This document shows, one piece after another, positions 1-23,700 of a stretch of 64,000 bases of DNA. Origin of the DNA: a virus; IMG/VR virus record IMGVR_UViG_3300033148_006239, positions 1-64,000 of that record; one strand, written 5' to 3'. The notes under the pieces are model-generated. The model did no database searches. It saw nothing but the letters and a program-made list of their open reading frames with translations, and was not told the DNA's origin. Within the stretch, counting starts at the first letter, position 1. Every line of letters begins with the position of its first letter. A program made the position numbers and the translations under genes.

Positions 1-22
1 ATTCTTTTTCATATTTTCCTCC
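1..22 (-). promoter_or_regulatory. RBS + ATG (GGAGGAAAAT-ATG-AAA-AAG-AAT) of a possible gene running off the left edge
   Basis: Reverse complement of 10-22 is GGAGGAAAATATG, identical to early-gene starts at 2541, 2872 and 3920. Confidence 0.6.
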
Positions 23-485: not shown

Positions 486-914
486 GCCGTACGAAACACG
501 ACAGAAGCGATTTCGGTCATCAATCATCTCGAATAGTTTTCTTACCATGACTCTAACCACGCCGATTGAAGCGTGATTGATTACAGTTCAGATCTCTATC
601 TATCTCTAACCAATCTCTAACCGTCGCAATCTGATCAATTCATGCCATTTCGGATTTCTGTCAATCTGATAAAAGATAGAAACTAAGAATATATTAGTTT
701 CTTGATTGAAAAAAGTACTTTTATATGAAGTTAGAACAAAAAATCATTCAAAAAGACAGAAAATAGAAATTAAATTCGTATCGTGACTAAAGAATTAATT
801 ACTTTTCTGTCAAAAAGACTGATTTTAAAACGCTTTTGTATAGGGTAGATAAAAACTATCATTTCAACAACAATTCTTTAGAAAATAATATGAATTATAT
901 GTTTCAATGCGCCG

Positions 915-1023
915 AAATGAGTCAAATGACCGCTTTTCGAGCGAAGAAATGACCGTTTTCGGCACAGAAATGATAAAAACACGTCGAAAATGACTCAAAT
1001 CCGCTCTTTTTGATCGAAAATGA
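915..1023 (+). repeat. Six AAATGA direct repeats, iteron-like
   Basis: Copies start at 915, 924, 947, 968, 988, 1018; two extend as AAATGACCG(C)TTTTCG and two as TCGAAAATGA. Confidence 0.6.
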
Positions 1024-1586
1024 ACCCAGACAGCATGAAACCAAGACTTTTGATACGAAATTGATATAAATATCAAAAATCGATCAAATTAATGGAAAAC
1101 CGTGATTAGAAGTACTGATCAAGACAAGAATCAGATATATAAAGAGCGCCGTTTGCAGTCAGATTATATATCATTTTCTGTGCTTTTACTTATACTTATC
1201 TATTCCTCTATTCTTATATAGATTATGAAGAAGTCTATGGAGGTAACTAAAGAATATGATTAGAATGATTACCTTTCAAATGACTTCCTTTCTTTTCATA
1301 TTTTTTGCGATCTCGGAGAGTTCCATTGCAAGATTTGATATATATATTACGTTTCTTTATGACCGAAGACTAATGAATGGTTTACTTCGTTTCTATCTAG
1401 ACTGATTCTATTATAAATATTAAATCGATTCAATTTGATAAGATCATTAAATCGTTCACTATATCGATCTTATTAATTGAATCAAATAATATCTAAAGAA
1501 ATAACAATTGATCAAATGACTGATAGAACCTATATCTATCTTATGATTATTTTTTTTATTTTTTTAATTCTTTTGGGAAACTGGTA

Positions 1587-1615
1587 TTTTCTTTATTAAT
1601 CTATTTTATTATATT
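1587..1615 (+). promoter_or_regulatory. Early-class promoter TTTTCT-N17-TATATT
   Basis: Same geometry and TTTAT before the -10 as the sites at 4369, 5330, 6118, 9713 and 11317. Confidence 0.7.
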
Positions 1616-1619
1616 TATA

Positions 1620-1853
1620 TTATAATTTTTATTTATTAATTTAATAAATAAAAATTATAAAGAATTGGGGTTCCATATCCATCATCCCCGTTAGAGCCAA
1701 AGAAAGTGGTAGATTCGAAAGGATATCGATCTTTATATAAGAATGCTAAATCCTGTTCGGAACGTACAAGAGCCTCCATCAGGTCATATATATTTCTCCT
1801 CCAAAAATATTCTGGTCGGGGGAGGGAACTAATTCTATTAGTTCCTTCCTTTG
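1620..1853 (+). ncRNA. Candidate small RNA 1 with anti-RBS loop
   Basis: Between a promoter and a terminator; perfect 20-bp inverted repeat at the 5' end (1620-1660); CUCCUCC in a hairpin loop; no RBS-led ORF. Confidence 0.55.
1821..1853 (+). terminator. Intrinsic terminator
   Basis: GGAGGGAACTAA-ttcta-TTAGTTCCTTCC then TTT; its G.U pair forms only on the + strand. Confidence 0.65.
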
Positions 1854-1979
1854 ATTAGTTTATTTAATATATTTCTAGTGTTTCAATATGGATCTCCTGA
1901 TCACAGGATCTTTTGATTCAGAAGATCGTTTAGTTCAGGAGGTCTTTATGGGAACATTAGCTTCCCATGGAGGAAAATT

Positions 1980-2486
1980 ATGAATGAATTACATCCGATC
2001 TTTGCATCTATTCATGAGATTGAGGATATAACATTCAATGTCTACGGCATCAAAGTCGAAGACTGTGTTATATCAGGTATCTATAACAATCTATCATTTT
2101 CATGTAAACTTTCTATTACGGATTTCCATGTCGATCTATCTCATTTTATCAATATGGACAATCATGTGAAAGTTACGGTTTCTAATAAAATTCGTACTCT
2201 TTTAGGATACGAACCTTATTATGAAGATATTTCAATGCATGAACAAGAGATCAACGACTTTCCAAAACTTTGTCAGGATTTCGCTGACCACGTCAAATCG
2301 TTATTCAAATTCGCAGAATCGAACTCTTTATCTCCTGATCAATTCAAAAGATTTAGAATTAATTATATCAAGGATTTTAAAAACTTCGATACTTTCCACG
2401 ATCTATTTTTTCACGTTGGCTACATTCTATCTGAATCTACGGAACAAGATATCATGGATCACCTTGAAGAATATTATTCAAAGTAA
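1980..2486 (+). CDS. Early hypothetical protein (N-part resembles ORFs 2551 and 3930; C-part resembles ORF 2882)
   Basis: GGAGG RBS at 1969; visible internal paralogy. Confidence 0.85.
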   Translation: MNELHPIFASIHEIEDITFNVYGIKVEDCVISGIYNNLSFSCKLSITDFHVDLSHFINMDNHVKVTVSNKIRTLLGYEPYYEDISMHEQEINDFPKLCQDFADHVKSLFKFAESNSLSPDQFKRFRINYIKDFKNFDTFHDLFFHVGYILSESTEQDIMDHLEEYYSK

Positions 2487-2553
2487 TCAAATTCAAGCTA
2501 CTTCTAACGAGGTAGCTTCTTTGAGATTATTTAAATCTCAGGAGGAAAATATG
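2481..2553 (+). promoter_or_regulatory. Repeated two-hairpin leader, copy 1
   Basis: AAGTAATCAAATTCA, stem AAGCTACTTC/GAGGTAGCTT, stem TGAGAT/ATCTCA with TTATTT apex, GGAGGAAAATATG. Confidence 0.75.
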
Positions 2554-2790
2554 AAATTAAGATCAATTAAATTCGAAAACTTATTCTTGGTCTGGTACGA
2601 ATGGAAAGAAGGTGAACATGAATTTCACGGTCTTTTCAATGGAAAACACTTCAAAACAACAACATGGGATTACGAACTCTATGACAAATTTGAATCCGAA
2701 GAAATCGATTTCTATAGCCAAGAAAGAAATGATCTACATGAACAAATTAATGAAGCGTTTGATTATTATTTTTCTAATGTTGAAAAATAA
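2551..2790 (+). CDS. Early hypothetical acidic protein (79 aa)
   Basis: Start moved to the ATG after GGAGG at 2541; the track start at 2221 overlaps the previous gene. Confidence 0.85.
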   Translation: MKLRSIKFENLFLVWYEWKEGEHEFHGLFNGKHFKTTTWDYELYDKFESEEIDFYSQERNDLHEQINEAFDYYFSNVEK

Positions 2791-2792
2791 TC

Positions 2793-2884
2793 AAGTAATT
2801 CAATTGAGATTCATAAAATATTTAAAATTATTTAAAAACATTATGGATCTCGATGGGTTTATTTAACCCTCGGAGGAAAATATG
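2793..2884 (+). promoter_or_regulatory. Repeated two-hairpin leader, copy 2
   Basis: AAGTAATTCAATTGA, stem GAGATTCATAA/TTATGGATCTC, stem GGGTT-tattt-AACCC, GGAGGAAAATATG. Confidence 0.7.
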
Positions 2885-3508
2885 GAAACTATACATCAAA
2901 TTCTAGAACGTCAACACATTACAAAAGGCTTAGGAAATGGTTATGAAGGTGAAACAGTTAAAACTTTCTGTTTTAACGATATTTTAAACTCAATATCATT
3001 TTCACTTGCAAATGATTTAATTGGTTCAAAATATGCTGGAGAATTACTTCAACGAGCTACTGAAAATCTATCTAGCATATTTAAAGATCTTAATGTAGTC
3101 GGTGATCTAATTATTAATCGTGTTTCAAATCAAAATGAAGGATCAACTACTCTTCATACTGATGAAAAAAATATCGTAATTAATTATTCTGAATCACCAA
3201 ATTTGTTTGCGGTTCGTATGAAAATTCACGATATTGAAAAATATCACAATGAAGTTTCAATGTATCAAGATGATGTTGATAATTTCCCAAAAAATGTCAA
3301 AGACTTCGCAGATGAAGTTTTTGAAACTTGGGAACTTGCTCAGAAACATTTAACCGAACAGGAATTTAAGCAATTCCAAATTAATTTCATTAAAGATCTG
3401 GGTAGTTCAAGTACAATGTTTGATATGATGTTCGGTGTAAGGTTCATATTATCAGAAGAAGATGATAATATGATTGTTAATCAAATCAAAGAAAATTACA
3501 TCAAGTAA
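2882..3508 (+). CDS. Early hypothetical protein
   Basis: GGAGG RBS; C-terminal ~75 aa aligns by eye with ORF 1980 (FPK...DFAD.V...FK.F.IN.IKD...ILSE). Confidence 0.85.
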   Translation: METIHQILERQHITKGLGNGYEGETVKTFCFNDILNSISFSLANDLIGSKYAGELLQRATENLSSIFKDLNVVGDLIINRVSNQNEGSTTLHTDEKNIVINYSESPNLFAVRMKIHDIEKYHNEVSMYQDDVDNFPKNVKDFADEVFETWELAQKHLTEQEFKQFQINFIKDLGSSSTMFDMMFGVRFILSEEDDNMIVNQIKENYIK

Positions 3509-3579
3509 TCCAATTCAAATCGCTTGGTATTTATCAGGCGATTTCTTTGGGATTATTTTATCCCAGGAGGAAAAATATG
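3503..3579 (+). promoter_or_regulatory. Repeated two-hairpin leader, copy 3
   Basis: AAGTAATCCAATTCA, stem AAATCGCTTG/CAGGCGATTT, stem TGGGAT-tatttt-ATCCCA, GGAGGAAAAATATG. Confidence 0.75.
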
Positions 3580-3840
3580 ATTTTAGAATTAAAAGATACT
3601 AATGAATTTATGCGTCTAGATGATGACGATCCTATAACTGGGATTGAAGACCTATTCAATTTTTATTTAACAACACTTAATACAGATTATTCAAAATCTG
3701 TATTAAAAGATCTTAAATTCCCTTTAAATCTTTATTGGGGTTCAATTTATGATTCTTTAGAAGATGCTAAATTGAATGATCCAACTAATGAATCTGCATC
3801 GGGTTGGACAATTGATAAATTTATTGGTAACCGGCTATAG
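3577..3840 (+). CDS. Early hypothetical protein
   Basis: ATG after GGAGG; the track start TTG at 3547 lies inside the leader hairpin. Confidence 0.8.
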   Translation: MILELKDTNEFMRLDDDDPITGIEDLFNFYLTTLNTDYSKSVLKDLKFPLNLYWGSIYDSLEDAKLNDPTNESASGWTIDKFIGNRL

Positions 3841-3859
3841 CAACGATGGAAATCTAATT

Positions 3860-3932
3860 AAGTAACCAAATTCAGATCCATTCATTGTAAGTGGATCACT
3901 TTGTGGTTATTTGCCACAAGGAGGAAAATATG
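3860..3932 (+). promoter_or_regulatory. Repeated two-hairpin leader, copy 4
   Basis: AAGTAACCAAATTCA, stem GATCCATT/AGTGGATC, stem TTGTGGT-tattt-GCCACAA, GGAGGAAAATATG. Confidence 0.75.
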
Positions 3933-4220
3933 AAACAGGTTATTTTTCAAACACGAGATTTAGTTCTTGAGTTTCAAGAAATAGAACTCGACAACATTAT
4001 TGTTAGTGGTTTGTATCACGATAAACCATTTTCAGGTGTTATTTCACGAACAGCATTTGAAAAATTTGATTATAACAATACCTTTTCATCTAAAGAATTG
4101 GATGATCTTTTTGAAGATATTAAAAAATCAATTGATATTTATTATTTAGATGCTGAAGATGAAGATGAACCTTTATCTGATTATGTTTTAGAAATTTTTG
4201 GAGGAGAAATTGTTCAATGA
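3930..4220 (+). CDS. Early hypothetical acidic protein, paralogue of ORF 2551
   Basis: GGAGG RBS; GLYHDKPF vs GLFNGKHF; S.E..DL.E.I....D.Y pattern shared. Confidence 0.8.
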   Translation: MKQVIFQTRDLVLEFQEIELDNIIVSGLYHDKPFSGVISRTAFEKFDYNNTFSSKELDDLFEDIKKSIDIYYLDAEDEDEPLSDYVLEIFGGEIVQ

Positions 4221-4345
4221 TTATAAAAATAACAACTCTACCATCAAAAGATCTACCAGTATATCATCTCATTAAACGTTACCATAAAAAATCTTATCCT
4301 AAAGTGTCATTTAAAGAAATTTTACTTGAAGCTTTAAATAAGTAA
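4217..4345 (+). CDS. 42-aa basic protein, possibly ribbon-helix-helix
   Basis: Not in track; GGAGGAG RBS at 4200, ATGA overlap with upstream stop, ends SFKEILLEALNK. Confidence 0.55.
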   Translation: MIIKITTLPSKDLPVYHLIKRYHKKSYPKVSFKEILLEALNK

Positions 4346-4368
4346 TCTTTTAGTTGTAGAACTTAAAT

Positions 4369-4397
4369 TTCATCTTAGAAAATCTATTTATTATATT
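4369..4397 (+). promoter_or_regulatory. Early-class promoter TTCATC-N17-TATATT
   Basis: TTTAT-TATATT-ATAA upstream of the RBS of ORF 4435. Confidence 0.6.
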
Positions 4398-4434
4398 ATA
4401 AATAGGTAAAAATTTCATTTTACTTGGAGGAAAT

Positions 4435-4638
4435 ATGGTTTGTCGTACAGAAAACTATGCTTTCAAACTCAAAAATGGTCAAGAAGTAAAAGCTCATTAC
4501 AGAGATTTCTTAGAAACAGAAAATGGTAAAATCTATTGCGATGATCTTGCCGAAGAACTTTGCTATGATAATAAAACAATCAAGATTAAAGATGAAAATG
4601 GTGACTTTTCAGAAGCCATTGAATTGTTTGTTTTATAA
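4435..4638 (+). CDS. Hypothetical protein
   Basis: TTGGAGGAAATATG start. Confidence 0.8.
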   Translation: MVCRTENYAFKLKNGQEVKAHYRDFLETENGKIYCDDLAEELCYDNKTIKIKDENGDFSEAIELFVL

Positions 4639-4662
4639 TTAATTTATTTCATTGGAGGAAAT

Positions 4663-4881
4663 ATGAATTTTGAATTACAATCGGCTATTAATCAACTTGA
4701 TAGTGCCGCAGAGAGCTTAAAAAGATATTCAGAAGAATTAGAAAGAACTATCAAAAGCCTTAAAGATGGTAAAAATCCAAACCCTAATACTTTGGGATTA
4801 ACAACATTCATCGGTAATCTTACATCAAATATATCAAATAAAATTGCTCTTGCAATTTGCAATCTCTGTGAGATTAAGTGA
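4663..4881 (+). CDS. Hypothetical protein
   Basis: TTGGAGGAAATATG start. Confidence 0.8.
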   Translation: MNFELQSAINQLDSAAESLKRYSEELERTIKSLKDGKNPNPNTLGLTTFIGNLTSNISNKIALAICNLCEIK

Positions 4882-5027
4882 TGAATGATTACAATTATCA
4901 AAAACAACTTGATGAAGCTTGGGAACAACAAATCTTCTTCGAAGAAAAACGTATCAAATGTGGATGTAAAATTTGTTTAAATGAAGAATCTGAAGATCCA
5001 TGTCAAGATGTATTAGATTTATGGTAA
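4881..5027 (+). CDS. 48-aa hypothetical protein with CxCxxC
   Basis: TGATG coupling to the upstream stop; fills the gap. Confidence 0.5.
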   Translation: MNDYNYQKQLDEAWEQQIFFEEKRIKCGCKICLNEESEDPCQDVLDLW

Positions 5028-5041
5028 ATAAATGAGAAACT

Positions 5042-5248
5042 ATGAAAATCTTTAGAGAAGAACCTGGCAAAAATAGCTTTACAATTTCAGGATTAACTCT
5101 TGGTAAGCTTAATCTTATTAAAAGATTAATCATTTCAGCTTCTGAAAATTCTGATTCTGCTATTGTTGAAGATTTAAAATGTTTTTTAAATCAATATGAT
5201 CTAAAAAACACGAACACTTATGACGGCGACGTAAAATCAAATTCCTGA
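5042..5248 (+). CDS. Hypothetical protein
   Basis: ORF in operon orientation. Confidence 0.7.
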   Translation: MKIFREEPGKNSFTISGLTLGKLNLIKRLIISASENSDSAIVEDLKCFLNQYDLKNTNTYDGDVKSNS

Positions 5249-5329
5249 ATAAAAAATTATCCTTTATAATAATATAATTTTTTAATTCGTAAAACTGATA
5301 ACTTTTTTTGATCTCACGAAAATCGCCTA

Positions 5330-5358
5330 TTTACTTTAGTTTCTCAATTTATTATATT
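5330..5358 (+). promoter_or_regulatory. Early-class promoter TTTACT-N17-TATATT
   Basis: Upstream AAAATC(A)GCCTATTT shared with the promoter at 9713. Confidence 0.7.
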
Positions 5359-5397
5359 TTAAATATATAACACTGTAATACGGTGTTTGGAGGAAAT

Positions 5398-5526
5398 ATG
5401 AAAAATATAAACATTCAAGATCTCTTTGATGACTATGATGAAGAAGATTATGACGATTATCATTGTCAAATTACTGATCTTGACGATGATCAAATTTCAA
5501 TTGAATGTCAGCAATTAGATTATTAA
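5398..5526 (+). CDS. 42-aa highly acidic micro-protein
   Basis: Not in track; TTGGAGGAAATATG start; MKNINIQDLFDDYDEEDYDDYHCQITDLDDDQISIECQQLDY. Confidence 0.7.
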   Translation: MKNINIQDLFDDYDEEDYDDYHCQITDLDDDQISIECQQLDY

Positions 5527-5614
5527 CATTCTACCTTGAAGCTTATAAGATTATAAGATTATAAGCTTCAAGGCCGATTGTTAATCGGAACCATTAATTT
5601 TATTGGAGAAAATT

Positions 5615-6052
5615 ATGAAAAAGAAAAACACAGTAATCAAAGAAGAAGCAGTCAAAAAAACTGCTCCTGTAGTAATTGACAAGCCAAAAACTAAAACAAT
5701 TACAAAACCTGCTCAGAAAGAAGTAATCGTAAAAAAGAACAAAAAGAACAAAGCTTCTAAAGAGCAGATTCAACAAATTTGGACAACAATCCAAACTCAG
5801 ATTGATGAAAACATTAATAAAGGTAAAGAAATCAATTCTGAAATTAAAAATTCAATTGCTGAACAATTACACAAAACGATAAAGGTATATCCTAATCAAG
5901 GATATTATCTTTATTACATCAACAAATATGTCAACGGTGACATTCCAATCAATCAAAGCAAAAATGGTGTAGCCTTAGATAAAGATGCACAGAAAAAGCA
6001 AGTCACTACCCAAATTGAATCTCTCAAAACACAACTTGGAAAATTAAAATAA
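5615..6052 (+). CDS. Lys-rich hypothetical protein
   Basis: GGAG RBS before ATG 5615. Confidence 0.8.
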   Translation: MKKKNTVIKEEAVKKTAPVVIDKPKTKTITKPAQKEVIVKKNKKNKASKEQIQQIWTTIQTQIDENINKGKEINSEIKNSIAEQLHKTIKVYPNQGYYLYYINKYVNGDIPINQSKNGVALDKDAQKKQVTTQIESLKTQLGKLK

Positions 6053-6055
6053 TTT

Positions 6056-6098
6056 ATACCCTCTGTAGATTTATAAGGCTGATCTACAGAGGGTATTT
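6056..6098 (+). terminator. Terminator hairpin
   Basis: ATACCCTCTGTAGAT / ATCTACAGAGGGTAT 15-bp inverted repeat just after the stop. Confidence 0.75.
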
Positions 6099-6117
6099 AT
6101 ATATATTTTATTTTAAT

Positions 6118-6146
6118 TTTTCTACAAACATCAATTTTATTATATT
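6118..6146 (+). promoter_or_regulatory. Early-class promoter TTTTCT-N17-TATATT
   Basis: Exact consensus upstream of an AGGAGG RBS. Confidence 0.7.
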
Positions 6147-6173
6147 ATAATTAATAAAATTAAGGAGGAATCT

Positions 6174-6401
6174 ATGATATTCGGTGTAGATTTTCAACAA
6201 GCATGTAAAGCAACTACTACAGGTCATAAAGTTAAAAGAGCAAATGGTGCGAATGTATATACATTTCTATCACCTGCTCATGCAATGGTCTTACAAACCA
6301 TAAGGGACAAATTTGGAAACGCAACAGAAAGTAAACCTGTCGCAACATTAATCTCAACAAACGATCAACAGGAAAATGACTGGATGATGTATCAAAAATA
6401 A
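6174..6401 (+). CDS. Tad2/DUF2829-like anti-defence sponge protein
   Basis: DFQQACKATTTGHKVKR...STNDQQENDW fits the F..A....G.KV.R...S..D..A.DW family pattern. Confidence 0.55.
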   Translation: MIFGVDFQQACKATTTGHKVKRANGANVYTFLSPAHAMVLQTIRDKFGNATESKPVATLISTNDQQENDWMMYQK

Positions 6402-6413
6402 CCGGGAGAAAAT

Positions 6414-6773
6414 ATGACTTATAAAGAAAAATTTATCGAAAAACTTCAGATTTATAATCTTAGTAAATCTGAAGACTTAGAACATGACGTAATTGCTCAT
6501 CTAATAAATTGGGCAGAAAAAGGTAATGACTTCGCTTATAATTTATTAAGGTTAAATTTTGATACTGCCGAATCATTAATTCATAAATTTTATGAATGGG
6601 AACTGGATAAAAACGAAGTATATCCCATGGACACAGAACTTATTCTTGAGATGTATTTTATAAAAGCAAAAGGAATTGCAAAAAAATCTGGAATCTGCAT
6701 CGAGAAAATAAAAACAACACATATGCATATCATTTTCTATTTAATAGAAAATGAATTTCTAAAATTATTTTGA
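6414..6773 (+). CDS. Hypothetical protein
   Basis: GGGAG RBS. Confidence 0.8.
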   Translation: MTYKEKFIEKLQIYNLSKSEDLEHDVIAHLINWAEKGNDFAYNLLRLNFDTAESLIHKFYEWELDKNEVYPMDTELILEMYFIKAKGIAKKSGICIEKIKTTHMHIIFYLIENEFLKLF

Positions 6774-6780
6774 GGTAATT

Positions 6781-7659
6781 ATGAAAAAATTATACAAAGT
6801 TTTTGATCCAGGTTTGATCAGCCCGTATCAGAATTTTAAATACAAAAAAGATAAAGAATATCATTGTGATAATTTTGACTATGATCAGTCGGATCATTGT
6901 AGTAATGGTTTCTATGCCGTCCCTATCGAAGGATTAATTTACACTTACCGCAAAGGTAAACATGTATACGAAGTCAATGTATGGGGTGATGAAATCATTA
7001 TAGATCAATTTAAGCAACGATACGAATATATTAATATTGGTAACAGAATACCACTGAAACAATTAAAACAACTAGTCAAAGAACAATCTAATAAAATGGA
7101 TTACAATTTATATCATACAATGTTCCCAATTGATCCACAGATAGTAAATCGTAAATTAAACAATAATGATAGTAAAATATTAGAAAAATGGGATTGTGTG
7201 AGGGATTCTGTGAGGACTTCTGTGTGGAATTCTGTGAGGGATTCTGTGAGGGATTCTGTGGGGGATTGTGTGTGGAATTCTGTGAGGGATTCTGTGAGGA
7301 CTTCTGTGAGGGCTTCTGTGTGGAATTCTGTGGGGGATTGTGTGTGGAATTCTGTGAGGGATTCTGTGTGGAATTCTGTGGGGGATTCTGTATGGGATTC
7401 TGTGAGGGATTCTGTGGGGGATTGTGTGTGGAATTCTGTGAGGGATTCTGTGGGGGATTGTGTGGGGGCTTATATATCAAACCTATTTCCATGCATGAAA
7501 AAATGGAAATATATAAATCATAAGCCAAATATTAATCCATATCAGTCATGTATTGATTTATGGCATCGTGGGTTTGTGCCTTCATTTGACGGTAAAATAT
7601 GGCGATTACATCAAGGCAGAGATGCTAAAATAATCTACGAATGGAAAGCAAAACAATGA
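6781..7659 (+). CDS. Phage protein with 23 [WRG][DNTA][SC]V tetrapeptide repeats
   Basis: GAGG RBS; N-terminal CSNGFYA domain; repeat is in frame. Confidence 0.85.
   Translation: MKKLYKVFDPGLISPYQNFKYKKDKEYHCDNFDYDQSDHCSNGFYAVPIEGLIYTYRKGKHVYEVNVWGDEIIIDQFKQRYEYINIGNRIPLKQLKQLVKEQSNKMDYNLYHTMFPIDPQIVNRKLNNNDSKILEKWDCVRDSVRTSVWNSVRDSVRDSVGDCVWNSVRDSVRTSVRASVWNSVGDCVWNSVRDSVWNSVGDSVWDSVRDSVGDCVWNSVRDSVGDCVGAYISNLFPCMKKWKYINHKPNINPYQSCIDLWHRGFVPSFDGKIWRLHQGRDAKIIYEWKAKQ
7189..7464 (+). repeat. 23 x 12-nt coding tandem repeat (consensus NGG-RAT-TCT-GTG)
   Basis: Directly visible. Confidence 0.95.
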
Positions 7660-7847
7660 TTATTTATTTAAAAAAGAGTGAACATAATATACCTGAATGG
7701 TTTAAAAACCCTAGATATACTTTGAAACATGATACATATAAAGACGAATATATTCTAGGTGATGCTGATCGTCTAATTTATTTCAGAGTACATAAATTAA
7801 ACAAAGCAAATTTCAAAAAATTTAAAAAACTTTTGGAGGAAGAATGA
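7656..7847 (+). CDS. Hypothetical protein
   Basis: ATGA overlaps at both ends. Confidence 0.7.
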   Translation: MIIYLKKSEHNIPEWFKNPRYTLKHDTYKDEYILGDADRLIYFRVHKLNKANFKKFKKLLEEE

Positions 7848-8248
7848 ATCACGACATTTATATTTCTGGACCTTTTAAAGATCCAAATAATTTAAAACTT
7901 GTAACAGAAATTAATAATCTTTGTGAATCAAATGGATTTAAAACTTTTCATACATTAAAAGATGGAATTGTTTTAGATGAAGATTCAGATAATGATAAAA
8001 TACGTGAAGCTATTAGATTGGGTATAGATGCTACATTACACGCAAAGATTTTTATAGCAATAGGACTAGATCCAGGTGTCATGTTTGAATTAGGATTAGC
8101 ATGGCGCTATGGAAAAAGAATTATATATTTCTCAAAAAATAAACCAAACAAAGTTATTTCAGCAATATCTAATTATGTAATAGAAAAAGATTTTGGTGAA
8201 CTAAATGTAGCTTTACAGATTCTTGGAGTAGATTATGACAGAAATTAA
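7844..8248 (+). CDS. Nucleoside 2-deoxyribosyltransferase / nucleotide N-hydrolase family
   Basis: IYISGPF and DPGVMFELGLA motifs. Confidence 0.75.
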   Translation: MNHDIYISGPFKDPNNLKLVTEINNLCESNGFKTFHTLKDGIVLDEDSDNDKIREAIRLGIDATLHAKIFIAIGLDPGVMFELGLAWRYGKRIIYFSKNKPNKVISAISNYVIEKDFGELNVALQILGVDYDRN

Positions 8249-9521
8249 AACAATTCTTGAAGAAATTGCATCTGAATCTAGTACAAATAAAAAAGTAGAA
8301 ATTTTACAATCTTATAAAGATAATAAAAAATTACAATCATATCTAAAAATGACTCTCGATCCTATGATTAATTTTAATGTAACTAAAAAATCGTTCAAAG
8401 ATAGATTTGAAATCTGGATTAATGATAGTGAATCTAATAATATTAATTGGTTTGAACTCAAAAAATATGTTTTAGATAAATTATGTTCAAGAGAAGTTAC
8501 TGGTCATAAAGCGTTACAATTATTTATTGATCATTATGTTGGAAATGAAATTGTTCTTAATATTATCTTCGATATGTTCCAAAAAAAAGTATGGAAAGCA
8601 AATATCTCTATTCAATTAATTAATCGTGTTTGGCCCGATGTTATTGATAAATTTCAAGTTCAATTAGCACAAAAATATTCTAAAGCTGAATTACCTTTTG
8701 ATATTACTTATGCATCCAGAAAACTTGATGGTACAAGAGCATTAATATTTATTTATGAAAATTCAATAAAAATCTTTTCAAGAAATGGAAAAGAAATACA
8801 CACCTTAGAATCATTCAAAAAAGATTTACTTAAACATATACAAGAATCTCATTATTCACGTATTATTCCATGTGTCATTGATGGTGAATTGTGTGTTGTT
8901 GATGAAAATAATAATGAAAGTTTTCAATCTATCATAAAACAATTACGTAGAAAAGATTATGATATAAAAAATGCAACATTTTATGTATTTGATTGGCTAT
9001 TAGTAGACGAATTCTATGAAAATATAAAATCTCCACAATTCAGTTATAGACTAAATGCTTTAAACTATTTTTGTAATACAATTGATTATGACAAAGTCAA
9101 AGCATTAAAACAGATCGTAGTCAAAAGAGAAAGCCATTTACAAAGATTAATTGAATCTGCATCAGAAAGAAATTGGGAAGGAATAATGCTTAAAAATGGT
9201 GAAAGTATTTATAAAGGAAAAAGAACTAAAAATCTGCTAAAAGTAAAGAAAATGAGTGATAACGAATATACAGTCACAAGATTAGAAGAAGGGTCTGCAA
9301 AATATATTGGAAGATTAGGTGCGGCAATAATTATACATAAAGATAATGAAGTTCATGTAGGTAGTGGCTGGTCTGATTCAGAAAGAGATTACTATTGGAA
9401 AAATAAAAATGAATTAATCGGAAAGAAAATTACAGTTCAATACTTTGAAGAAACTAAAAATCAACTAGGAAAATATTCCCTTAGATTTCCAGTCTTTAAA
9501 GGAGTAAGAGATTATGAATAA
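8235..9521 (+). CDS. ATP-dependent DNA ligase
   Basis: KLDGTR, IDGEL, YVFD, WEGIMLK, LLKVK, SLRFPVF motifs. Confidence 0.95.
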   Translation: MTEIKTILEEIASESSTNKKVEILQSYKDNKKLQSYLKMTLDPMINFNVTKKSFKDRFEIWINDSESNNINWFELKKYVLDKLCSREVTGHKALQLFIDHYVGNEIVLNIIFDMFQKKVWKANISIQLINRVWPDVIDKFQVQLAQKYSKAELPFDITYASRKLDGTRALIFIYENSIKIFSRNGKEIHTLESFKKDLLKHIQESHYSRIIPCVIDGELCVVDENNNESFQSIIKQLRRKDYDIKNATFYVFDWLLVDEFYENIKSPQFSYRLNALNYFCNTIDYDKVKALKQIVVKRESHLQRLIESASERNWEGIMLKNGESIYKGKRTKNLLKVKKMSDNEYTVTRLEEGSAKYIGRLGAAIIIHKDNEVHVGSGWSDSERDYYWKNKNELIGKKITVQYFEETKNQLGKYSLRFPVFKGVRDYE

Positions 9522-9681
9522 TAAAAAAGAAATTGAAGAAATTATTGAAAAATATTTAATTGAGAAATTAATAATTTCTTTTGATCGTTATACAAATAAT
9601 TGTGGTGATGAAATAATAGAAATTGAAATTTCTTTAAAAGATACAAAATTTTCCATAATTAAATCAATAACAGTAAATTGA
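9514..9681 (+). CDS. 55-aa hypothetical protein
   Basis: Not in track; AAGGAG RBS inside the ligase 3' end. Confidence 0.55.
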   Translation: MNNKKEIEEIIEKYLIEKLIISFDRYTNNCGDEIIEIEISLKDTKFSIIKSITVN

Positions 9682-9712
9682 AAACTTTTTTTAATCAAAT
9701 AAAATCAGCCTA

Positions 9713-9741
9713 TTTTCTTTGTAAAACTTATTTATTATAAT
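9713..9741 (+). promoter_or_regulatory. Early-class promoter TTTTCT-N17-TATAAT
   Basis: Consensus match. Confidence 0.75.
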
Positions 9742-9790
9742 ATAAATAACAAAATAAAAGGTTATTACTTAATAACCAATGGAGAAAAAT

Positions 9791-10264
9791 ATGATAACTA
9801 ATTTTATTTCAAACAGAAATCTTCAAGACTTACTTCTAGGTGAACCTCAAATTGAAATTTTCAAAGACCAAAATAATGAATTTCATTTTATTCATTTTGA
9901 AGATATTCATATTGAAATATGGGAAGATGATTCCCTAAAACAACAATCTCATTCTAATAATGTTTCATCAATAAACGAACAAGATTTACTTAATAATGAA
10001 ATTGTTATTGCAAACAATATAGAAAATGTTAAATTAGTTCTTGAAGAAAGACTTCAAAACAAATACTTTCTTGTAATCTCAGAAAAGAAAACATACAAAG
10101 TCAAGATTAAAGCAACATTTGAACTTGAAACGACAATTGAAAATACAACAGAAGAACTAGCAAAAAGAGAAGCAGAAAAATATGAAATTGAATGTAGCTG
10201 CGACAGTGAACTTGAAGTAATAGATGAAGACTTTAATATTGAAGTAGAGGAAGAGGGAGAATAA
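9791..10264 (+). CDS. Acidic hypothetical protein
   Basis: GGAG RBS at 9781 before ATG 9791. Confidence 0.8.
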   Translation: MITNFISNRNLQDLLLGEPQIEIFKDQNNEFHFIHFEDIHIEIWEDDSLKQQSHSNNVSSINEQDLLNNEIVIANNIENVKLVLEERLQNKYFLVISEKKTYKVKIKATFELETTIENTTEELAKREAEKYEIECSCDSELEVIDEDFNIEVEEEGE

Positions 10265-10917
10265 TGAAAATAATAAATAACTGGTCAATAGTAGATGGAA
10301 TCGGTATTTATGTTTCACCTCAAGCTATAAATTATCATATCTATCTCATAGGTAGTATCGAAGGTGTTAATACACAAACATCATATATTAAGAAATTAAT
10401 ACTTTACGACAATAAAATTGAAACACTAAATAGCGTTTATGAATTAGGTCAAAAATCAGAAAATTATTCAAGATTTCTATCTGAAGAAGATCTATCAATT
10501 ACAGATGCATATCCAAATAGTGATCTAATTGATTTATTCATTAAAAATGAATTAAAATTAGGAACACTAAAAGGTTGTCTAAAAACGGGGTGGTATGATT
10601 GGTTTTGTGAACCTGAAAAAATACCAAGCAAAACAAAAAAATTATTAAGACTGCTTTATGAAATTAGAAATACAAAAAAGTTTGATATTTCTAATACAGC
10701 AGTAATGTTCAAAAATAATTGTCATGTAGATTATGGACTGTACGATGATTTTAGAATATTGGATTTATATAAACAATCTTCAAATCCAATATTCACAATA
10801 ATACCATATTATCCACACATTAAGCAATCAGCAGTTTATGGACCTGAAAATAAGTTTGAAGAACCATTGGTGAGTGGAACATGGAACGACGTTTTAAGAT
10901 TTTTTAATAAGGAATAA
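10264..10917 (+). CDS. Hypothetical protein, apparently two domains
   Basis: TAATG coupling; C-domain GWYDWFC...FKNNC...LYDDFRI. Confidence 0.8.
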   Translation: MKIINNWSIVDGIGIYVSPQAINYHIYLIGSIEGVNTQTSYIKKLILYDNKIETLNSVYELGQKSENYSRFLSEEDLSITDAYPNSDLIDLFIKNELKLGTLKGCLKTGWYDWFCEPEKIPSKTKKLLRLLYEIRNTKKFDISNTAVMFKNNCHVDYGLYDDFRILDLYKQSSNPIFTIIPYYPHIKQSAVYGPENKFEEPLVSGTWNDVLRFFNKE

Positions 10918-10962
10918 TATTTATATTATTCTCAAATTTTGTTCAAAAACAAGGAGTAACTT

Positions 10963-11310
10963 ATGGACAACATTGTAGAAACTTATCAAGATATATTGGA
11001 TACAATGAGTTCAAATATTGACGAATTCTTTGAATCACAACCAATCTCTAAAAAAGCGATTGAAGAAATTCAAACTGAATTTGATGATCTCAATTGTGAC
11101 AACGTTCTTGTCAACGAAAAGACAAGATGCCTTGTCTTTTTAAACGAAAAGACACTCAAAAATTGGAGTGAAAAAACTCCAATAAAACCAAAGAACATTA
11201 TTAACATGGACAGTGCATTTGTTGCTTACCAACGTATACCATCAAATGCAAATAAAGAAGTTAAAGGATTTTTTCAGTTAATCACAGGTGAGAGAAAGGC
11301 AAATGTATAA
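10963..11310 (+). CDS. Hypothetical protein
   Basis: AAGGAG RBS. Confidence 0.8.
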   Translation: MDNIVETYQDILDTMSSNIDEFFESQPISKKAIEEIQTEFDDLNCDNVLVNEKTRCLVFLNEKTLKNWSEKTPIKPKNIINMDSAFVAYQRIPSNANKEVKGFFQLITGERKANV

Positions 11311-11316
11311 TATGAT

Positions 11317-11345
11317 TTTACTTTATTAATCAGTTTTATTAGGTT
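11317..11345 (+). promoter_or_regulatory. Early-class promoter TTTACT-N17-TAGGTT, near twin of the promoter at 1587
   Basis: TTTACTTTATTAATCAGTTTTATTA vs TTTTCTTTATTAATCTATTTTATTA. Confidence 0.55.
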
Positions 11346-11351
11346 ATTAAC

Positions 11352-11484
11352 TGATTAAGTCCTTTTTATATGAAGTTTAATTATATATTCCTCCCAGTAC
11401 AATAATTAAACTTCATTTTTTTCGCAATACTGTAACATATTTTTCTCCAAAGGGGCATGGTACTCACTTTCCATGCCCCTTTTC
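11352..11484 (+). ncRNA. Candidate small RNA 2 with anti-RBS segments
   Basis: 15-bp perfect stem (11370-11384/11402-11416) enclosing UUCCUCCC; CAUAUUUUUCUCCAA at 11436-11450; ends at terminator. Confidence 0.5.
11449..11484. terminator. Terminator between convergent blocks
   Basis: AAAGGGGCATGG...CCATGCCCCTTTT. Confidence 0.8.
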
Positions 11485-11620
11485 TAGACTTAAAATGTGG
11501 TTGAAAAATTTTAATAGGCAGGAGATTATTTATATTTATTTAATATAAACCTATATTAAATATAAAAAGATTCAATAGAGATAATTCTGGATTCAGAGAT
11601 AATAATTAAAATTAATTAAA

Positions 11621-11923
11621 TTAGCCACCACAACAACCACTTGGGACATGTTTTTCTTGTTTATATTGATTTATTTGTTCGTTGATGTCTTTCTTCATTT
11701 TCTTTAAAGTTTCAGTAATCATAACTATTTCATTGTCATTTCTTGCATGATCTCTTTTATATAATGCTCGTTCAACAAAAAACATCATTTTATTCACATA
11801 ATCTTTAGGTAAATCTTTACCTATAAGATAACCATCAACATCAATAACTACTTTCTCTTTTAATAACTTAGTAATAATTAAAATTTCTTCATTGAAATCA
11901 TTAATTAATCTTTCTTTTAACAT
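11621..11923 (-). CDS. Hypothetical protein ending GCCGG
   Basis: GGAG RBS before ATG 11923, preceded by a 22-bp palindrome (11936-11957). Confidence 0.75.
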   Translation of the reverse strand: MLKERLINDFNEEILIITKLLKEKVVIDVDGYLIGKDLPKDYVNKMMFFVERALYKRDHARNDNEIVMITETLKKMKKDINEQINQYKQEKHVPSGCCGG

Positions 11924-11972
11924 GATAATACTCCAATGGCTCACATATGTGAGCCATCTAAGTCTATAATTA

Positions 11973-12452
11973 TTATTCTGATAAGTAATCGTTTATTTCA
12001 TTAAGAATCTCATCTTCTTCATCAAACCAAGCTTTAATCCTACGAAGTAATTGTTTATATTTCTCTATCTGTCCTTCAAGATTTTCTATAATTTGATTAA
12101 GACTTTCGTTGTCTCTTTGAACTTGTGCAACAAGAATATCGAGAGCTTCTTTGTCTTTCTTTAACTGATCCAAAGTTTCAATTATATCTCTAGCCTGCTC
12201 TTCGTATTTAACTGCTTTTTCTTCTAAAGTATCAACTTGTCCATTTAATGTATTATTTTCATTTTCAAGATTAGCGTTGTCTCTTTGCAAACCCTTAATC
12301 ATATTAAAAAGTACATCAAACAATGACTTACCTTCTGCCACTACTTGTTCGGCAGATTGCTCTTCTTCTTGAGATTCATCTTGAGCAGCAAATACTGGTG
12401 CTGCAATAAACATTATACATAAAAGAATTAAAATTGAAAAATATATTTTCAT
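11973..12452 (-). CDS. Exported coiled-coil protein
   Basis: Signal peptide ending VFA, heptad repeats, AGGAGG RBS. Confidence 0.8.
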   Translation of the reverse strand: MKIYFSILILLCIMFIAAPVFAAQDESQEEEQSAEQVVAEGKSLFDVLFNMIKGLQRDNANLENENNTLNGQVDTLEEKAVKYEEQARDIIETLDQLKKDKEALDILVAQVQRDNESLNQIIENLEGQIEKYKQLLRRIKAWFDEEDEILNEINDYLSE

Positions 12453-12713
12453 AGAAGCCTCCTAATTAATTAGCTATATTAAATATAATAAAATATTAAA
12501 AAAAATCATAATACCATTAAAATTTTTCATATTTAATAATCTACTTTTTTTATTTTTAAAAAAGTATTTTTCTTTTTATAGTAATTAATAACGTATTTCA
12601 GATTTTTTCCTATTGTCCATTTAGCTATATTAGCGGCATCAATAATAATTTCATTTTCAACTTCTAATCCAAAACAGGCATATTTCAATGTAATTTGATA
12701 TAAATATCTCATA

Positions 12714-12920
12714 TTATTTATTTAAACAACACTTCTTATATTTTTTACCAGACCCACAAAAACATTGATCATTTCTTCCTATTTTTTCTTTATTAATAAT
12801 CTGTTTCTTAGCTTGTAATTCATTTCTACAATCTTTAGTATACTGTCTATTGATTTTAACCCACTCGTCTAAAGAAATATTGGGAAATGAATCATCTTTT
12901 ATCTCTATTAAGTCCATCAT
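12714..12920 (-). CDS. SEC-C motif protein
   Basis: [20 protein letters not shown]. Confidence 0.85.
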
Positions 12921-13429
12921 ATTTTAATTTTTATAGATTTTAATTTAGATGTTAATTCCTTAAATGATTCAATCGTATCTTTAAGCATTTCTATATGATC
13001 CTCTACGACACCTTCTGTTTCATCAAGATCATCTAACATTTTGTCATACAATTTTTCTTGTTTTCTGTTAAACGCGTTATCAGATTTTTTATCTATTTGA
13101 TTATATTTTTTCTTTATTTTTTTATCTAATTGTTTACAATATTTTAGTTCATTTTGTATTGAAAGTAAAAAATCTGATTTATTTGTAGTAGCGACATTAT
13201 ATTCTTCTACGTCGATATTATTATCATGCTCTAATAATATTTGATTGTTATTTTTCGCCACGGCTTTATATCTCATTCTTAATAGCAAAATATAAAGTAT
13301 AATAATTTGTAATGATATTGAGCATACATATATATGTAAAAAACTATCAGTACTAATTAAAACAAGCGTAGCTAAGATTATGTTAATTACTGCTATAGCT
13401 ATACATAATTTAATTTTTAAATTTCTCAT
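12917..13429 (-). CDS. Two-TM membrane protein with coiled-coil tail
   Basis: Two hydrophobic N-terminal segments. Confidence 0.75.
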
Positions 13430-13520
13430 GATTCTTAATACCTATTATAGTTTAATATAATTCTTTTACAATACATATTTTCATAATTAAATAATCATAT
13501 ATTTATTCTCCTAACTTAAA

Positions 13521-13835
13521 TTATTCTTCTGTAGATTCAGTGATTTCTTCGATATGCTCAACAGATTCTGCGGCTTGTTTTTCTGCGGCTTGTTTTTCTG
13601 CTTTCTGATTTTCTAATTCAGCATTTAGCTGTGTTGCTATCCATGTAGCTTTAGATTCAAGTGTTTTATCAGCAAATATTACTTTTGTCTCTTTAAATTG
13701 TAAAAATTCCCACAGTGACATCTTATAAATTAACTTATCACATATGACTGTACTAAAATTTGCTTTAAAGTTAAATGTATCTAAATCACCAACAAAGATA
13801 ATTAACTTCTTTTTTTCATTTTTAATGTTATCCAT
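13521..13835 (-). CDS. Hypothetical protein
   Basis: ORF in operon; EKQAA x2. Confidence 0.7.
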   Translation of the reverse strand: MDNIKNEKKKLIIFVGDLDTFNFKANFSTVICDKLIYKMSLWEFLQFKETKVIFADKTLESKATWIATQLNAELENQKAEKQAAEKQAAESVEHIEEITESTEE

Positions 13836-13836
13836 T

Positions 13837-14100
13837 TTAAAATCCTATATTTTCAATTACATCATTTAAAAAATTAAACTGATTCTGTGTTTCTGCAAAA
13901 TCACTAGCTGATTTATTTTCATACCACTCATCTAAAACTTGAGTAAATTTATTTATTTTATCGTGTTCCCAATTATCTACAATATACATCTTTATTTCAC
14001 GAATAAATTTATTTCCATCATTTATATTTGCTTTTTTAATAGCATCTTTTAAGTGACCAGGATGATGCAATTCAACAGCAGATATTATTTCAATAATCAT
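13837..14100 (-). CDS. Hypothetical protein
   Basis: GGAG RBS; TTTATTATATTATAA promoter-like motif upstream. Confidence 0.75.
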   Translation of the reverse strand: MIIEIISAVELHHPGHLKDAIKKANINDGNKFIREIKMYIVDNWEHDKINKFTQVLDEWYENKSASDFAETQNQFNFLNDVIENIGF

Positions 14101-15477: not shown

Positions 15478-15990
15478 TCAATTTACACGTTTAGGTGTAG
15501 TTTTATTTTCATCATCTCCATGGGCCATATCTTTTTCTTGTACTTCTTTTTCTTTTGCTTTAGCCTCTTCCATTTTTCTTTTATTTTCTTTAACTATATT
15601 TGAACCTTTTGGAGGTGTTCTTTGAATAAAATTACCTTTATCATCTTTTGAAGATAAAAGATACATCATAGGTGCTTGTTCAAATACTTTAAATTCTTCT
15701 TTAGTTGAAATACCTTCAAATTCATTTAAACATATTTTACGTGCAATACGTAAATTCATTCTAATTTCTTCTTCATCGAGAGATGTCATTTCTTCTTCTA
15801 ACTGAAATAGATATGTTACTAATACAGTCAATAACGTTTGAGTTGATTGCCTAGTAGCTACTTCGGCACCTCTAACTTTTACTAATCTTAATATTAAATC
15901 ACCTGTATTTTTTCTAACATATCCTTTAGAATCTTTTTTCTCTTTTTTTTCTTTGCTATTTATTTCAACTACTTTTTCTTCATCTGACAT
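15478..15990 (-). CDS. Hypothetical protein
   Basis: AGGAG RBS preceded by hairpin CTAGGGCC-aattaa-GGCCCTAG (16006-16027). Confidence 0.8.
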   Translation of the reverse strand: MSDEEKVVEINSKEKKEKKDSKGYVRKNTGDLILRLVKVRGAEVATRQSTQTLLTVLVTYLFQLEEEMTSLDEEEIRMNLRIARKICLNEFEGISTKEEFKVFEQAPMMYLLSSKDDKGNFIQRTPPKGSNIVKENKRKMEEAKAKEKEVQEKDMAHGDDENKTTPKRVN

Positions 15991-16036
15991 AAAAAATCTC
16001 CTATACTAGGGCCAATTAAGGCCCTAGATTTTTGAA

Positions 16037-20714: not shown

Positions 20715-23700
20715 TTAACCACAACTACCATCAGAATTACCACAATTTGGACATGTTTTACATCTTCCTGTTTGTTCCATCAATGTTCCACATTTACTAC
20801 ATGATTCACCAGTTTCTTTTTGAACTTGTGTAACATTTTTATCTAAATATTTCATTAATAAATATTTACCTAAATAGTCTGAAGGTGAATTAACAAATCT
20901 TAATTCATTGATACTGCTTGATGTAATTCCAGCAGGTTCATATTTCATATCAATTAATGAATTACATAATTCTTCTAAAGGAACTTCGTATTGTAATGCC
21001 TTTGATATTATCTTTGCAAGTGAATCCATTAAACCAGCAGTCGTAGATCCTTCTTTATTCATAATTATAAATAATTCTGCTAAACTACCATCATCAAATT
21101 CACCTGGAATTATATACATTGTTTGTTTATCAATCTTTACTTTATGTACTGAGGCATTTCTTGTATCATCAAGTGCTTTCTTTTTATTGCTTTGACCAAT
21201 AAAACCTTTATTATTACCAGTATTCAGTGGCTGAGTCATTTTACTTCCATCTCTGTAAATTGTAATACCTTTTAATTTACTTTTCCACGCAAACATAAAT
21301 GCATCTTTAACATCATCAACTGTAGAATCTGAACTCATATTTATTGTCTTTGAAATCGCACCACTGATAAAGGGTTGTACTGCAGCAACCATCATTATAT
21401 GTGCTTCATAGCTAAGCATATTCCCAGCTTTATCGGGTAATGAACATTCAAATACTTTTTGATGTTCTTCTTTCAAAAATTTACAATCACTTAAATCATT
21501 ATTCTCTGACAGATGTTCTAGAATATTTCTCGTATAATTTTCATCATATCCTAGTGCTTTCAATGCATTTTGTACCGAATCATTTATTAAAATTTCTGTA
21601 GTACCACTTATTAATTTCTTATACTTTATTAAAGCTAAATCAGACTCAATACCTGTCGTATCACAATCCATTAAAAATGATATTGTACCAGTAGGAGCTA
21701 TTACTGTAACTTGAGCGTTTCTAAATGTTAAACCTTCCGATGTAATAAATGACCAATTATCAAGTGCTTCGTCGTACAATTCATTATAATTAAAATCTAT
21801 CTTTAATTGAGGAAAATTTATTCTTTTGTGTTCTACTAAATGCTTCTTAAGAACCTTTCTGAAAGAAGATTTATTTTTTTCAAAATATTTAAATGGTTCT
21901 AAAAATTCAGATACTTCAGAGCTTACAGCATAAGCAGTAGACGTCATTAAACTAGTGATAAGAGATGCGATTAATCTTCCATCATCTGAATCATAAGGAA
22001 TACCTAATGTCATTAACAGTGATCCAAGATTACTAAAGCCTAATCCTAATGGTCTAAAATCTTGTGAATTTTCTTTTACTGATTCATTTGGATATTCAGA
22101 AATCTCACATATAATATCTTGCGAAATTACAAATAATTTTATAATGTGCTTGAATTTATCAATATCAAATTTATTACCATCTAGAAGTTTTATTAAATTA
22201 ACCGATGCTAAATTACATGCACTATCATTAAGAAAAACATATTCACCACAATTATGTATAATAACAAATCCCTTCTCAGATCCAGCAGCAAAATTTCCCA
22301 ACGAAGGAACAGATAAATCATAAACATCTTCACGTTTACGTTTTCTTACATAAATAACTTTATGATTATATTGTAAACATTTTTCTTTAAAATCATCCCA
22401 ATCTAAACCTTGAACTCTTCTTTTATAAGTATGACCAATAGGAGCTTTACCTCTATAGCGTTCTTTAACTATTTTATTCCATTCATTTAATTCTGATCTA
22501 TTAACTCTCTTATTTTTAGAATAATTTTCTAAAGCTTCAACCATTATATTATATAATAGTTTAGCGTCACAATCCATAAACATACCATTATTAACACCTT
22601 TCCTAGCACAATTTTCTTTCCAAAGATCATATTTTTCTTTATTCGTATTCTTCAAAATACGAATAGGATTATTATCTCCCATAACATGATCTCTAGCATG
22701 CTTTGACTTTGAAATAACTTCTAAATTATTTGGATCATCATTGAGCTTATCATGATCTTTATGATGTACATGAAATTGTCTATCACTTCTATCAAAATCT
22801 AATATATCGTTAGCAACAACTCTATTACACTTTTGTAATGGATATTCACCATCCAAAAGATTCATTCTTCTATACCCAAATTTATCAACTCTACAATAAA
22901 ATGGTGTCAAAGAATCACCTTGTTTTAAATCTTTTGCTTTTTTATATTTACCGTTCTTTAATAAAAATCTATGATCTGGTGTACAATCTATATAGCCACC
23001 ACTACCGAACCCGACTCTTACTGTTTCTGTATTAACTTTTGTTTTAACTATCTTATTGACTTTTCCAACTGAAATCCTTTTCCTATCATAAGAATAACCA
23101 TAAACATATAAATTATCATAATCATTAATAAGTTCATCAACTCTTTTCGGACCACGCGTCGTAAATATTAATGTTGATCCAGTAACACATGGATTACTAG
23201 ATTCTATCTTACCACTTCTCTTGCACGTGTGCCAATCATTAACTCTCGTATCAAAGAACAAAGCAGGATCTCCACAAAAATGTGAATATTCACAAATTTT
23301 ATTAAATACTTCTTTTGCATTCAAAATATCAATTTGATCACCAGTTGTTCTTGCCACTGTGGCGTACGTATTATTTTGCACTACTCTTTCCATAAAATCG
23401 TCAGTTACGGAAACAGAAAAATTACTGTTCTGAAAATTAACATGTTTATATGCACTATTTTTACTAGAAAAATCTGTCGAATATTCTCCTGTAGAAGCTA
23501 ATAATCTTGCTTTAATCTCTTCTTTATATTTAGCTTCAATAAATTCAATAATATCAGGATGGTCGTAGTTCAATATTTCCATTTTTGCGGCGCGACGTGT
23601 ATTTGAAACACAAATTCCTTTACCATAAATATCACTTTTATTATCTAACGACCATATAATATAATTATGACCAGAATTTATAGATTTATCATCTAAAGAA

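Follow-up and report, generated by a model that had tools for sequence, protein, structure and literature searches.

The stretch of DNA analysed here (the window, 64,000 nucleotides) covers the opening 64 kb of an IMG/VR virus record of 105,324 bp, whose ends overlap by 114 bp and thus indicate a circular assembly. The phage genome has a G+C content of ~27% and its genes carry clear SD sequences. Rightward ORFs span 1980-11310 and almost all ORFs run leftward from 11621 on, so that the gap at 11311-11620, where the two blocks meet, is the only convergent junction in the genome. The candidate unit occupies the left half of this gap. Its features, and those elsewhere in the genome with which they are compared, are (window coordinates unless stated):

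4387, 5348, 6136, 9731 (+ strand) and 12492, 14146 (- strand): gene-backed promoters of the early family, each 25-45 nt before a real gene start
9780 to 9793, + strand: start region TGGAGAAAAATATG of ORF 9791-10264, which opens the last early transcription unit; an exact reverse complement of 11436-11449
11308 to 11310, + strand: stop codon that closes the last rightward gene (ORF 10963-11310), from the ORF calls
11317 to 11345, + strand: early-family promoter-like site, with -35 TTTACT (11317-11322), a 17-nt spacer ending in TTTAT and -10 TAGGTT (11340-11345); predicted start ~11352
11326 to 11358, unstranded: perfect 10-bp inverted repeat TTAATCAGTT / AACTGATTAA flanking the -10
11370 to 11422, + strand: hairpin 1, predicted from fold and sequence, with an AU-rich 15-bp stem plus 4 pairs, a CCUCCC hexaloop and a T-run at 11416-11422
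11406 to 11449, - strand: leftward reading, TGGAGAAAAAT-ATG and a 10-codon frame (MLQYCEKNEV) whose stop codon lies inside hairpin 1
11423 to 11448, + strand: linker, predicted single-stranded, carrying CAUAUUUUUCUCCA (11436-11449), a mirror of SD, spacer and AUG
11449 to 11483, unstranded: hairpin 2, predicted from fold and sequence, a stem rich in G+C whose core is 11452-11460 / 11471-11479, with AAA on one side and TTTT on the other
Genome 101330 to 101570 (L009:431-671), + strand: three tandem rightward units in a gap between leftward genes, of the form TTTATTATA(T/A)T, 25 nt, hairpin, U-run

The + strand RNA would thus carry two CU-rich mirror images of a translation start region, one in the loop of hairpin 1 and one in the predicted single-stranded linker. 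The first-pass annotation had described a perfect 15-bp stem followed by a GC-rich terminator. Both descriptions hold, and its other listed features are likewise at the positions it gave: the arms 11370-11384 and 11402-11416 pair perfectly, and the arms of hairpin 2 (11449-11460 and 11471-11482, core GGGGCATGG/CCATGCCCC) are followed by TTTT. On hairpin 1, RNAfold adds four pairs (one of them U.G) and leaves the CCUCCC hexaloop at 11390-11395. Scored as Rho-independent terminators, hairpin 1 qualifies on the + strand only (15+4 bp, then 6-7 U), its - strand copy being followed by AUAUAAAAAGG, which is no terminator tail, and hairpin 2 qualifies with 9-12 GC-rich bp followed by U4 on the + strand; its - strand tail has U3 (UUUGGAG) and is weak. 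Against shuffles, the region has fold z-scores of -6.6 to -7.4 (+ strand) and -5.4 (- strand). Judged by fold and tail, hairpin 1 is a rightward intrinsic terminator presenting an anti-SD loop, and hairpin 2 probably terminates transcription arriving from either of the converging blocks. Many transcripts would probably stop at hairpin 1 and its U-run, ahead of the second mirror segment; termination at 11416-11422, which the first-pass annotation had named as an outcome that would count against its proposed RNA, is what the sequence predicts for many transcripts.

A locus of terminators only is a rival account of this arrangement. Hairpin 1 would end the early operon and hairpin 2 would act in both directions, the mirrors would be orphan or decaying leftward start modules (the second of them lying in the loop of hairpin 1), the promoter would be inactive and there would be no riboregulation. 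We regard this as doubtful but as a serious contender: terminators are needed anyway at the sole convergent junction of the genome, and besides hairpins 1 and 2 the genome has few strong intergenic terminators that read rightward. The motifs themselves fit it less well, since two start-like motifs 50 nt apart are odd as gene relics and real start modules do not place the SD in a hairpin loop; in a small RNA whose seeds are redundant, by analogy with LhrC, two such motifs would come as no surprise.

The promoter-like site bears on whether the unit is transcribed in its own right. The claim of a twin promoter at the other end of the early block is borne out, TTTACTTTATTAATCAGTTTTATTA (11317-11341) and 1587-1611 being identical at 22 of 25 positions, and so is the claim that the spacer of the site is common only to it and the promoter at 1605. 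A 22/25 match somewhere in the genome is attained by 0.25-0.4% of random 25-mers; by the computed chance levels, both the hairpins and the promoter likeness exceed chance. The extended alignment (26/31 identical) ends at the promoter edges, so a conserved functional module fits better than a recent segment duplication. The 1605 site is itself a member of the early promoter family, whose consensus is TTTnCT-N17-TATATT with TTTAT immediately ahead of a -10 of TATATT or TATAAT; the rightward members align as TTT(A/T)CT, a 17-nt spacer with the TTTAT end, then TATATT. The genome contains nine copies of the motif TTTATTATATT, with eight lying outside the SD-based gene calls, and five copies plus one TATAAT variant lie 25-45 nt upstream of a real SD-ATG and are oriented toward the start. 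One family promoter, at ~9711-9741, stands ahead of ORF 9791. The early family TTT(A/T)CT-N17-TATATT is distinct from the TGTTA-type motifs of the middle genes.

A promoter matrix trained solely on family members with a gene behind them was used to score ~210,000 genome positions, and the two best non-training matches were 1605 and 11335; with matrices trained without it, the 11317-11345 site ranks 6-8 of ~210,000 positions. The -35 TTTACT is identical to the one ahead of ORF 5398, and the -10 TAGGTT matches the family TATATT at 4/6 and the TATAAT consensus at 3/6 positions. A generic sigma-70 promoter scan did not place the site among its 60 best. The site is preceded by the last early gene's stop codon and followed by hairpin 1, whose base begins 24 nt from the -10, and has nothing but the hairpin to express: no SD-ATG follows on the + strand at the 25-45 nt typical of the family, and the 11-codon + strand frame at 11370 lacks an SD. 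The poor -10 is what an inactive promoter at a locus of terminators would predict, whereas the standing of the copy as the best or second-best non-training match in the genome, and a likeness confined to the promoter core, argue against that reading. The shared promoter core CTTTATTAATCNNTTTTATTA has seven matches in IMG/VR, about the number estimated by chance, and the two examined lie in unrelated contexts. The inverted repeat around the -10 could be an operator or an RNA hairpin within a read-through mRNA; the operator idea for the 11326/11349 palindrome was dropped, its half-site having no second copy elsewhere in the window.

Since only UUU follows hairpin 2 on the leftward strand, the leftward operon may read through it, and a promoter directed at the end of that operon suggests another role for a rightward RNA from ~11352. 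Such an RNA would act in cis, in the manner of lambda OOP or P22 sar, on a leftward operon whose 3' trailer is its exact complement, forming dsRNA for RNase III. It would either determine where that mRNA ends or how stable it is, or block leftward read-through into early-gene antisense. The convergent geometry and the weak UUUGGAG tail agree with this, as does a third locus (genome 101482-101570) whose promoter reads antisense through an intercistronic gap of leftward genes. We nevertheless consider it improbable, because it leaves unexplained why the exposed motifs mirror start regions in particular.

These motifs had been read as anti-RBS segments, the second of them directed at ORF 9791. 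The complementarity is exact as claimed, CATATTTTTCTCCA (11436-11449) being the reverse complement of 9780-9793, and on sequence statistics a 14-nt complementarity alone is only mildly unusual. Start regions of this phage are stereotyped (TGGAG(G/A)AAAATATG); the 14-mer lies within 2 mismatches of 7/101 called gene starts, and exact 14-mer identity among real start regions is found in 3/5050 pairs. Its information amounts to 26 bits, a level reached or exceeded by at least 15 unrelated inverted matches genome-wide. The rightward starts at 2541 and 3920 are moreover mirrored exactly, over 16 nt, by the start of a true leftward gene at window 7-22, so mirror matches can arise between real genes on opposite strands without any antisense function. 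A third RNA element proposed at 10-26 turned out to be the true start of a 141-codon leftward ORF (genome 104797-105222).

Pairing energies favour start regions in general over ORF 9791 in particular. The linker pairs far more strongly with real start regions than its own shuffles do, and early-block starts (mean -13.7 kcal/mol) pair better than others (-9.3 kcal/mol; p ~2e-5); the linker of the third locus has the same early-start bias, and the early-gene preference is therefore generic. ORF 3930 forms the best duplex (-22.2 kcal/mol) and ORF 9791 only the fifth (-18.8 kcal/mol). Specific targets were sought among 158 candidate starts and rejected, the best duplexes of each seed lying ~3-3.9 sd below the seed mean. 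ORF 9791 is thus not supported as a specific target: with stereotyped starts its 14-nt match is not evidence for one, and pairing is equal or better for ORF 3930, for ORF 2882 and for the leftward gene that starts at window 12. A regulator dedicated to ORF 9791, working in trans or by 5'-3' pairing in cis within a read-through mRNA of ~9740-11484, is a sub-case of the anti-start-region reading that we find distinctly improbable; ORF 9791 does head the transcription unit that has the mirror segment at its 3' end, and the exact complement and its energy would suit such a regulator, but the complementarity is confined to the stereotyped core that other starts share.

The CCTCC of the loop motif is confined, on the + strand of 1600-11500, to the two candidate loci, with sites at 1773, 1798 and 11390 (3 against 0.9 expected), and in the + strand RNA a U flanking the displayed CCUCCC can wobble-pair with the G of AUG. 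Read on the - strand the same motif is GGGAGG-AATAT-ATA, which has no start codon and so is no working gene start.

Read leftward from 11484 to 11406, the second half of the unit has the order hairpin, TTTGGAGAAAAAT, ATG and ten codons, and this order also occurs at real genes. Strong GC-rich hairpins (-15 to -19 kcal/mol) stand immediately upstream of the SD of leftward genes at 15988-16033, 11923-11958 and genome ~89190-89230. Viewed on the + strand, the start of the 170-codon ORF 15478-15990 reads CAT-N7-CTCC-N4-CTAGGGCC..GGCCCTAG-ATTTTTG and that of ORF 11621-11923 reads CAT-N7-CTCC-A-hairpin, the 15988-16033 module even having a U-run on the + strand. This hairpin-before-SD start module recurs, perhaps with a role in processing, stability or attenuation. 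As the real starts at 15990 and 11923 have the same hairpin-SD-ATG module, the second half of the unit may be an orphan gene start beside a bidirectional terminator, which is the strongest evidence against a functional small RNA and agrees with a locus of terminators only. The same reading is favoured by a 10-codon frame of the length expected in random sequence (in the - strand coding test it is not longer than chance, the mean random frame of the same composition being ~12 codons) and by the 23 orphan GGAG-N4-9-ATG sites in the genome, which is about the number expected from composition. Against it, only 3 of these 23 sites precede a strong hairpin and U-run, and all three stand behind family promoters; the tally includes a manual reading of 1785-1865, where the stem requires G.U pairs and so works only as + strand RNA.

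The leftward reading might instead be functional in itself, with the SD and ATG at 11449-11436 loading ribosomes on the 10-codon frame, or binding 30S in the manner of STAB-SD stabilisers, at the tail of the leftward operon. The SD-ATG is intact, has a normal 6-nt spacing and directly follows a hairpin as in real genes, and a second 10-codon frame of the same layout lies at genome 101527. We hold this to be very improbable: there is no downstream gene to stabilise or couple, the frames have random-like lengths and encode two unrelated peptides, the stop codon falls within hairpin 1 and the loop motif lacks a start codon. A type I toxin-antitoxin arrangement was rejected as well, the peptides being 10-11 residues long, the - strand peptide not hydrophobic and the + strand frame devoid of an SD.

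The view that two RNAs bracket the early block proved incomplete. The twin locus exists, with its family promoter, but a third similar locus and two gene-less promoter-hairpin units lie at genome 101.33-101.57 kb, in tandem, the U-run of one unit overlapping the promoter motif of the next. The first two (genome 101330 and 101404) have the family motif with 25 nt between -10 and hairpin base, and each gives a leader of 18 nt that runs into a single long hairpin with a U-run; the promoter-to-hairpin spacing of 24-25 nt is common to them and the 11317 unit. The third (genome 101482-101570) has a near-consensus promoter, TTTACA-N17-TATAAT, and CATACTAAATCTCCAA directly before a GCCCC/GGGGC hairpin followed by CTTTTATTT, the same look as 11436-11484; read leftward it gives an SD-ATG and ten codons, MILLVRSITM. 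By sequence, then, gene-less promoter-hairpin units recur in this phage; the matrix built on coding promoters scores the 101.33-101.57 kb sites poorly, which makes those three less certain. At the twin locus, a 17-nt complement at 4194-4210 (31.9 bits) is at the level of the genome-wide chance maximum.

Two further observations concern these loci. The loop of the second tandem unit mirrors 10-11 nt of a leader stem at window 2505. On the - strand of the twin locus (window 1636-1808), an SD, GGAGGAG, precedes ATG-ACC-TGA. Within TGATG this stop shares letters with another ATG, from which a frame of 47 codons runs (1779-1636); antisense to the proposed leader RNA, the two frames could be coupled by termination-reinitiation.

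The best explanation that we can offer, and one that we hold tentatively, is that the segment is a terminator zone between the rightward early block (ORFs 1980-11310) and the leftward genes, with a weak early promoter of its own, and that the resulting small RNA is directed against start regions. The first step is the firmer one: from promoter likeness and hairpins, it seems reasonably probable that the locus yields a rightward small RNA, whether started at its own weak promoter or formed by the 3' end of the early unit that begins near 9740. Transcription would begin at ~11352, supplemented by read-through from the early unit starting near 9740; its main end at 11422 would yield an RNA of ~70 nt, and partial read-through to 11484 one of ~133 nt, hairpin 2 also terminating the leftward operon. 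The exposed CU-rich loop, joined in the long form by the linker, could then pair with the stereotyped start regions. Among early genes the starts of ORF 3930, ORF 2882 and ORF 9791 would be matched best, and the 3' end of the unit would belong to the transcription unit headed by ORF 9791. Such pairing would damp early-gene translation, as C-rich-motif small RNAs of low-GC bacteria (LhrC, RsaE) do, and would offer an RNA route to early-gene shut-off. That the small RNA is an anti-ribosome-site regulator damping early translation through its CU-rich loop and linker is a possibility to which we give somewhat less than even weight.

A broader version, in which at least three early-promoter-driven non-coding RNAs (the 1622-1865 leader, the 11317 unit and the third unit of 101.33-101.57 kb) mirror early starts and jointly silence early translation, appears unlikely on present sequence grounds. 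If it were true, the phage would achieve with RNA an early shut-off such as T4 achieves with RegA/RegB, and would carry an analogue of the multicopy LhrC. To our knowledge, few small RNAs of lytic phages control the timing of the phage's own genes, and phages of SD-using, low-GC-type hosts have contributed almost none; a real case here would show that early genes can be switched off in time by generic anti-start-region RNAs whose genes flank the early block. Should the case turn out otherwise, it still warns that stereotyped starts, together with hairpins before the SD, make the opposite strand of any gene start resemble an anti-RBS segment plus terminator.

Several known systems resemble parts of this design. 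The OOP RNA of lambda and the sar RNA of P22 act on exactly complementary, overlapping mRNA; like them, the candidate would be a short promoter-plus-terminator RNA convergent to another transcript, the overlap being putative here. The T4 proteins RegB (an endonuclease) and RegA (a repressor) target the SD or start region of early messages and switch off early translation, and so share the presumed targets of the candidate while being proteins, not RNA. The c4 antisense RNA of phages P1 and P7, made in the same transcription unit as its target, pairs through its loops around the ribosome-binding site of its own mRNA (PMC12197685). The candidate is likewise a phage RNA with loop sequences that mirror a ribosome-binding site on the mRNA of its own operon, but c4 lies upstream of its target, is processed out and makes a specific two-site match, whereas the candidate is a generic anti-SD. 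In Listeria monocytogenes, the multicopy LhrC small RNAs work in a low-GC setting and block the SD of their targets with a CU-rich motif present in loop A, the linker and the terminator loop (PMC4132741). The candidate has such a motif in a loop (CCUCCC) and in the linker between its two stem-loops (UUUCUCC) and lacks it in the terminator loop UACUCACUUU; it differs in being phage-encoded and in having the phage's own early genes as presumed targets. C-rich motifs in loops or open regions of RsaE/RoxS and other Firmicutes small RNAs pair with the G-rich SD (the UCCC rule; PMC2790875), and the candidate places its C-rich motifs alike, though in a different fold and context. By design the candidate would thus stand closest to LhrC and the UCCC-motif RNAs and, among phage RNAs, to c4 of P1/P7.

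An Rfam scan of 1-14000 (E up to 1) returned only a spurious plant miRNA match at 1800-1918, with no match to the models of LhrC, RsaE/RoxS, c4 (RF01695) or other described small RNAs, so that the candidate is not a member of LhrC, RsaE or c4. Searches for relatives of the phage were made with blastn of 9500-13500 against cultured phages, with ORF 10963, ORF 11621 and the ligase against IMG/VR, and with the ligase and the exact 25-mer against JGI metagenomes; none returned a relative. The best outside relatives of the ligase are at most 40% identical, and the DNA polymerase is at most 30% identical to that of any cultured phage, its best cultured matches being Bacillus phages, alongside unannotated human-faecal phage fragments. 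ORF 9791 has no homologue but itself, an identical protein being encoded on two other contigs, and ORFs 9791, 10264 and 10963 and the homologues of ORF 10264 are unmatched in Pfam. The 217-aa early protein at 10264-10917 has 401 distant relatives of its C-terminal ~110 residues, mostly 125-150 aa long.

Other observations were made along the genome. Two direct repeats, GATTCA(AT)AGAGATAAT, 18-21 nt apart at window 11569-11603, adjoin a hairpin made only of A and T (11528-11571), in the interval from hairpin 2 to where ORF 11621 ends, and possibly form a protein-binding site. At window 20715-25214 lies a 1499-aa ribonucleotide reductase large subunit with HNH-endonuclease-like segments at residues ~305-415 and 797-849, which are probably intein or homing-endonuclease insertions. 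Finally, G is absent from one strand over ~2.3 kb (window 1-485 and genome 103380-105324), and genome 103371-104025 is pure A/T except for a single C.
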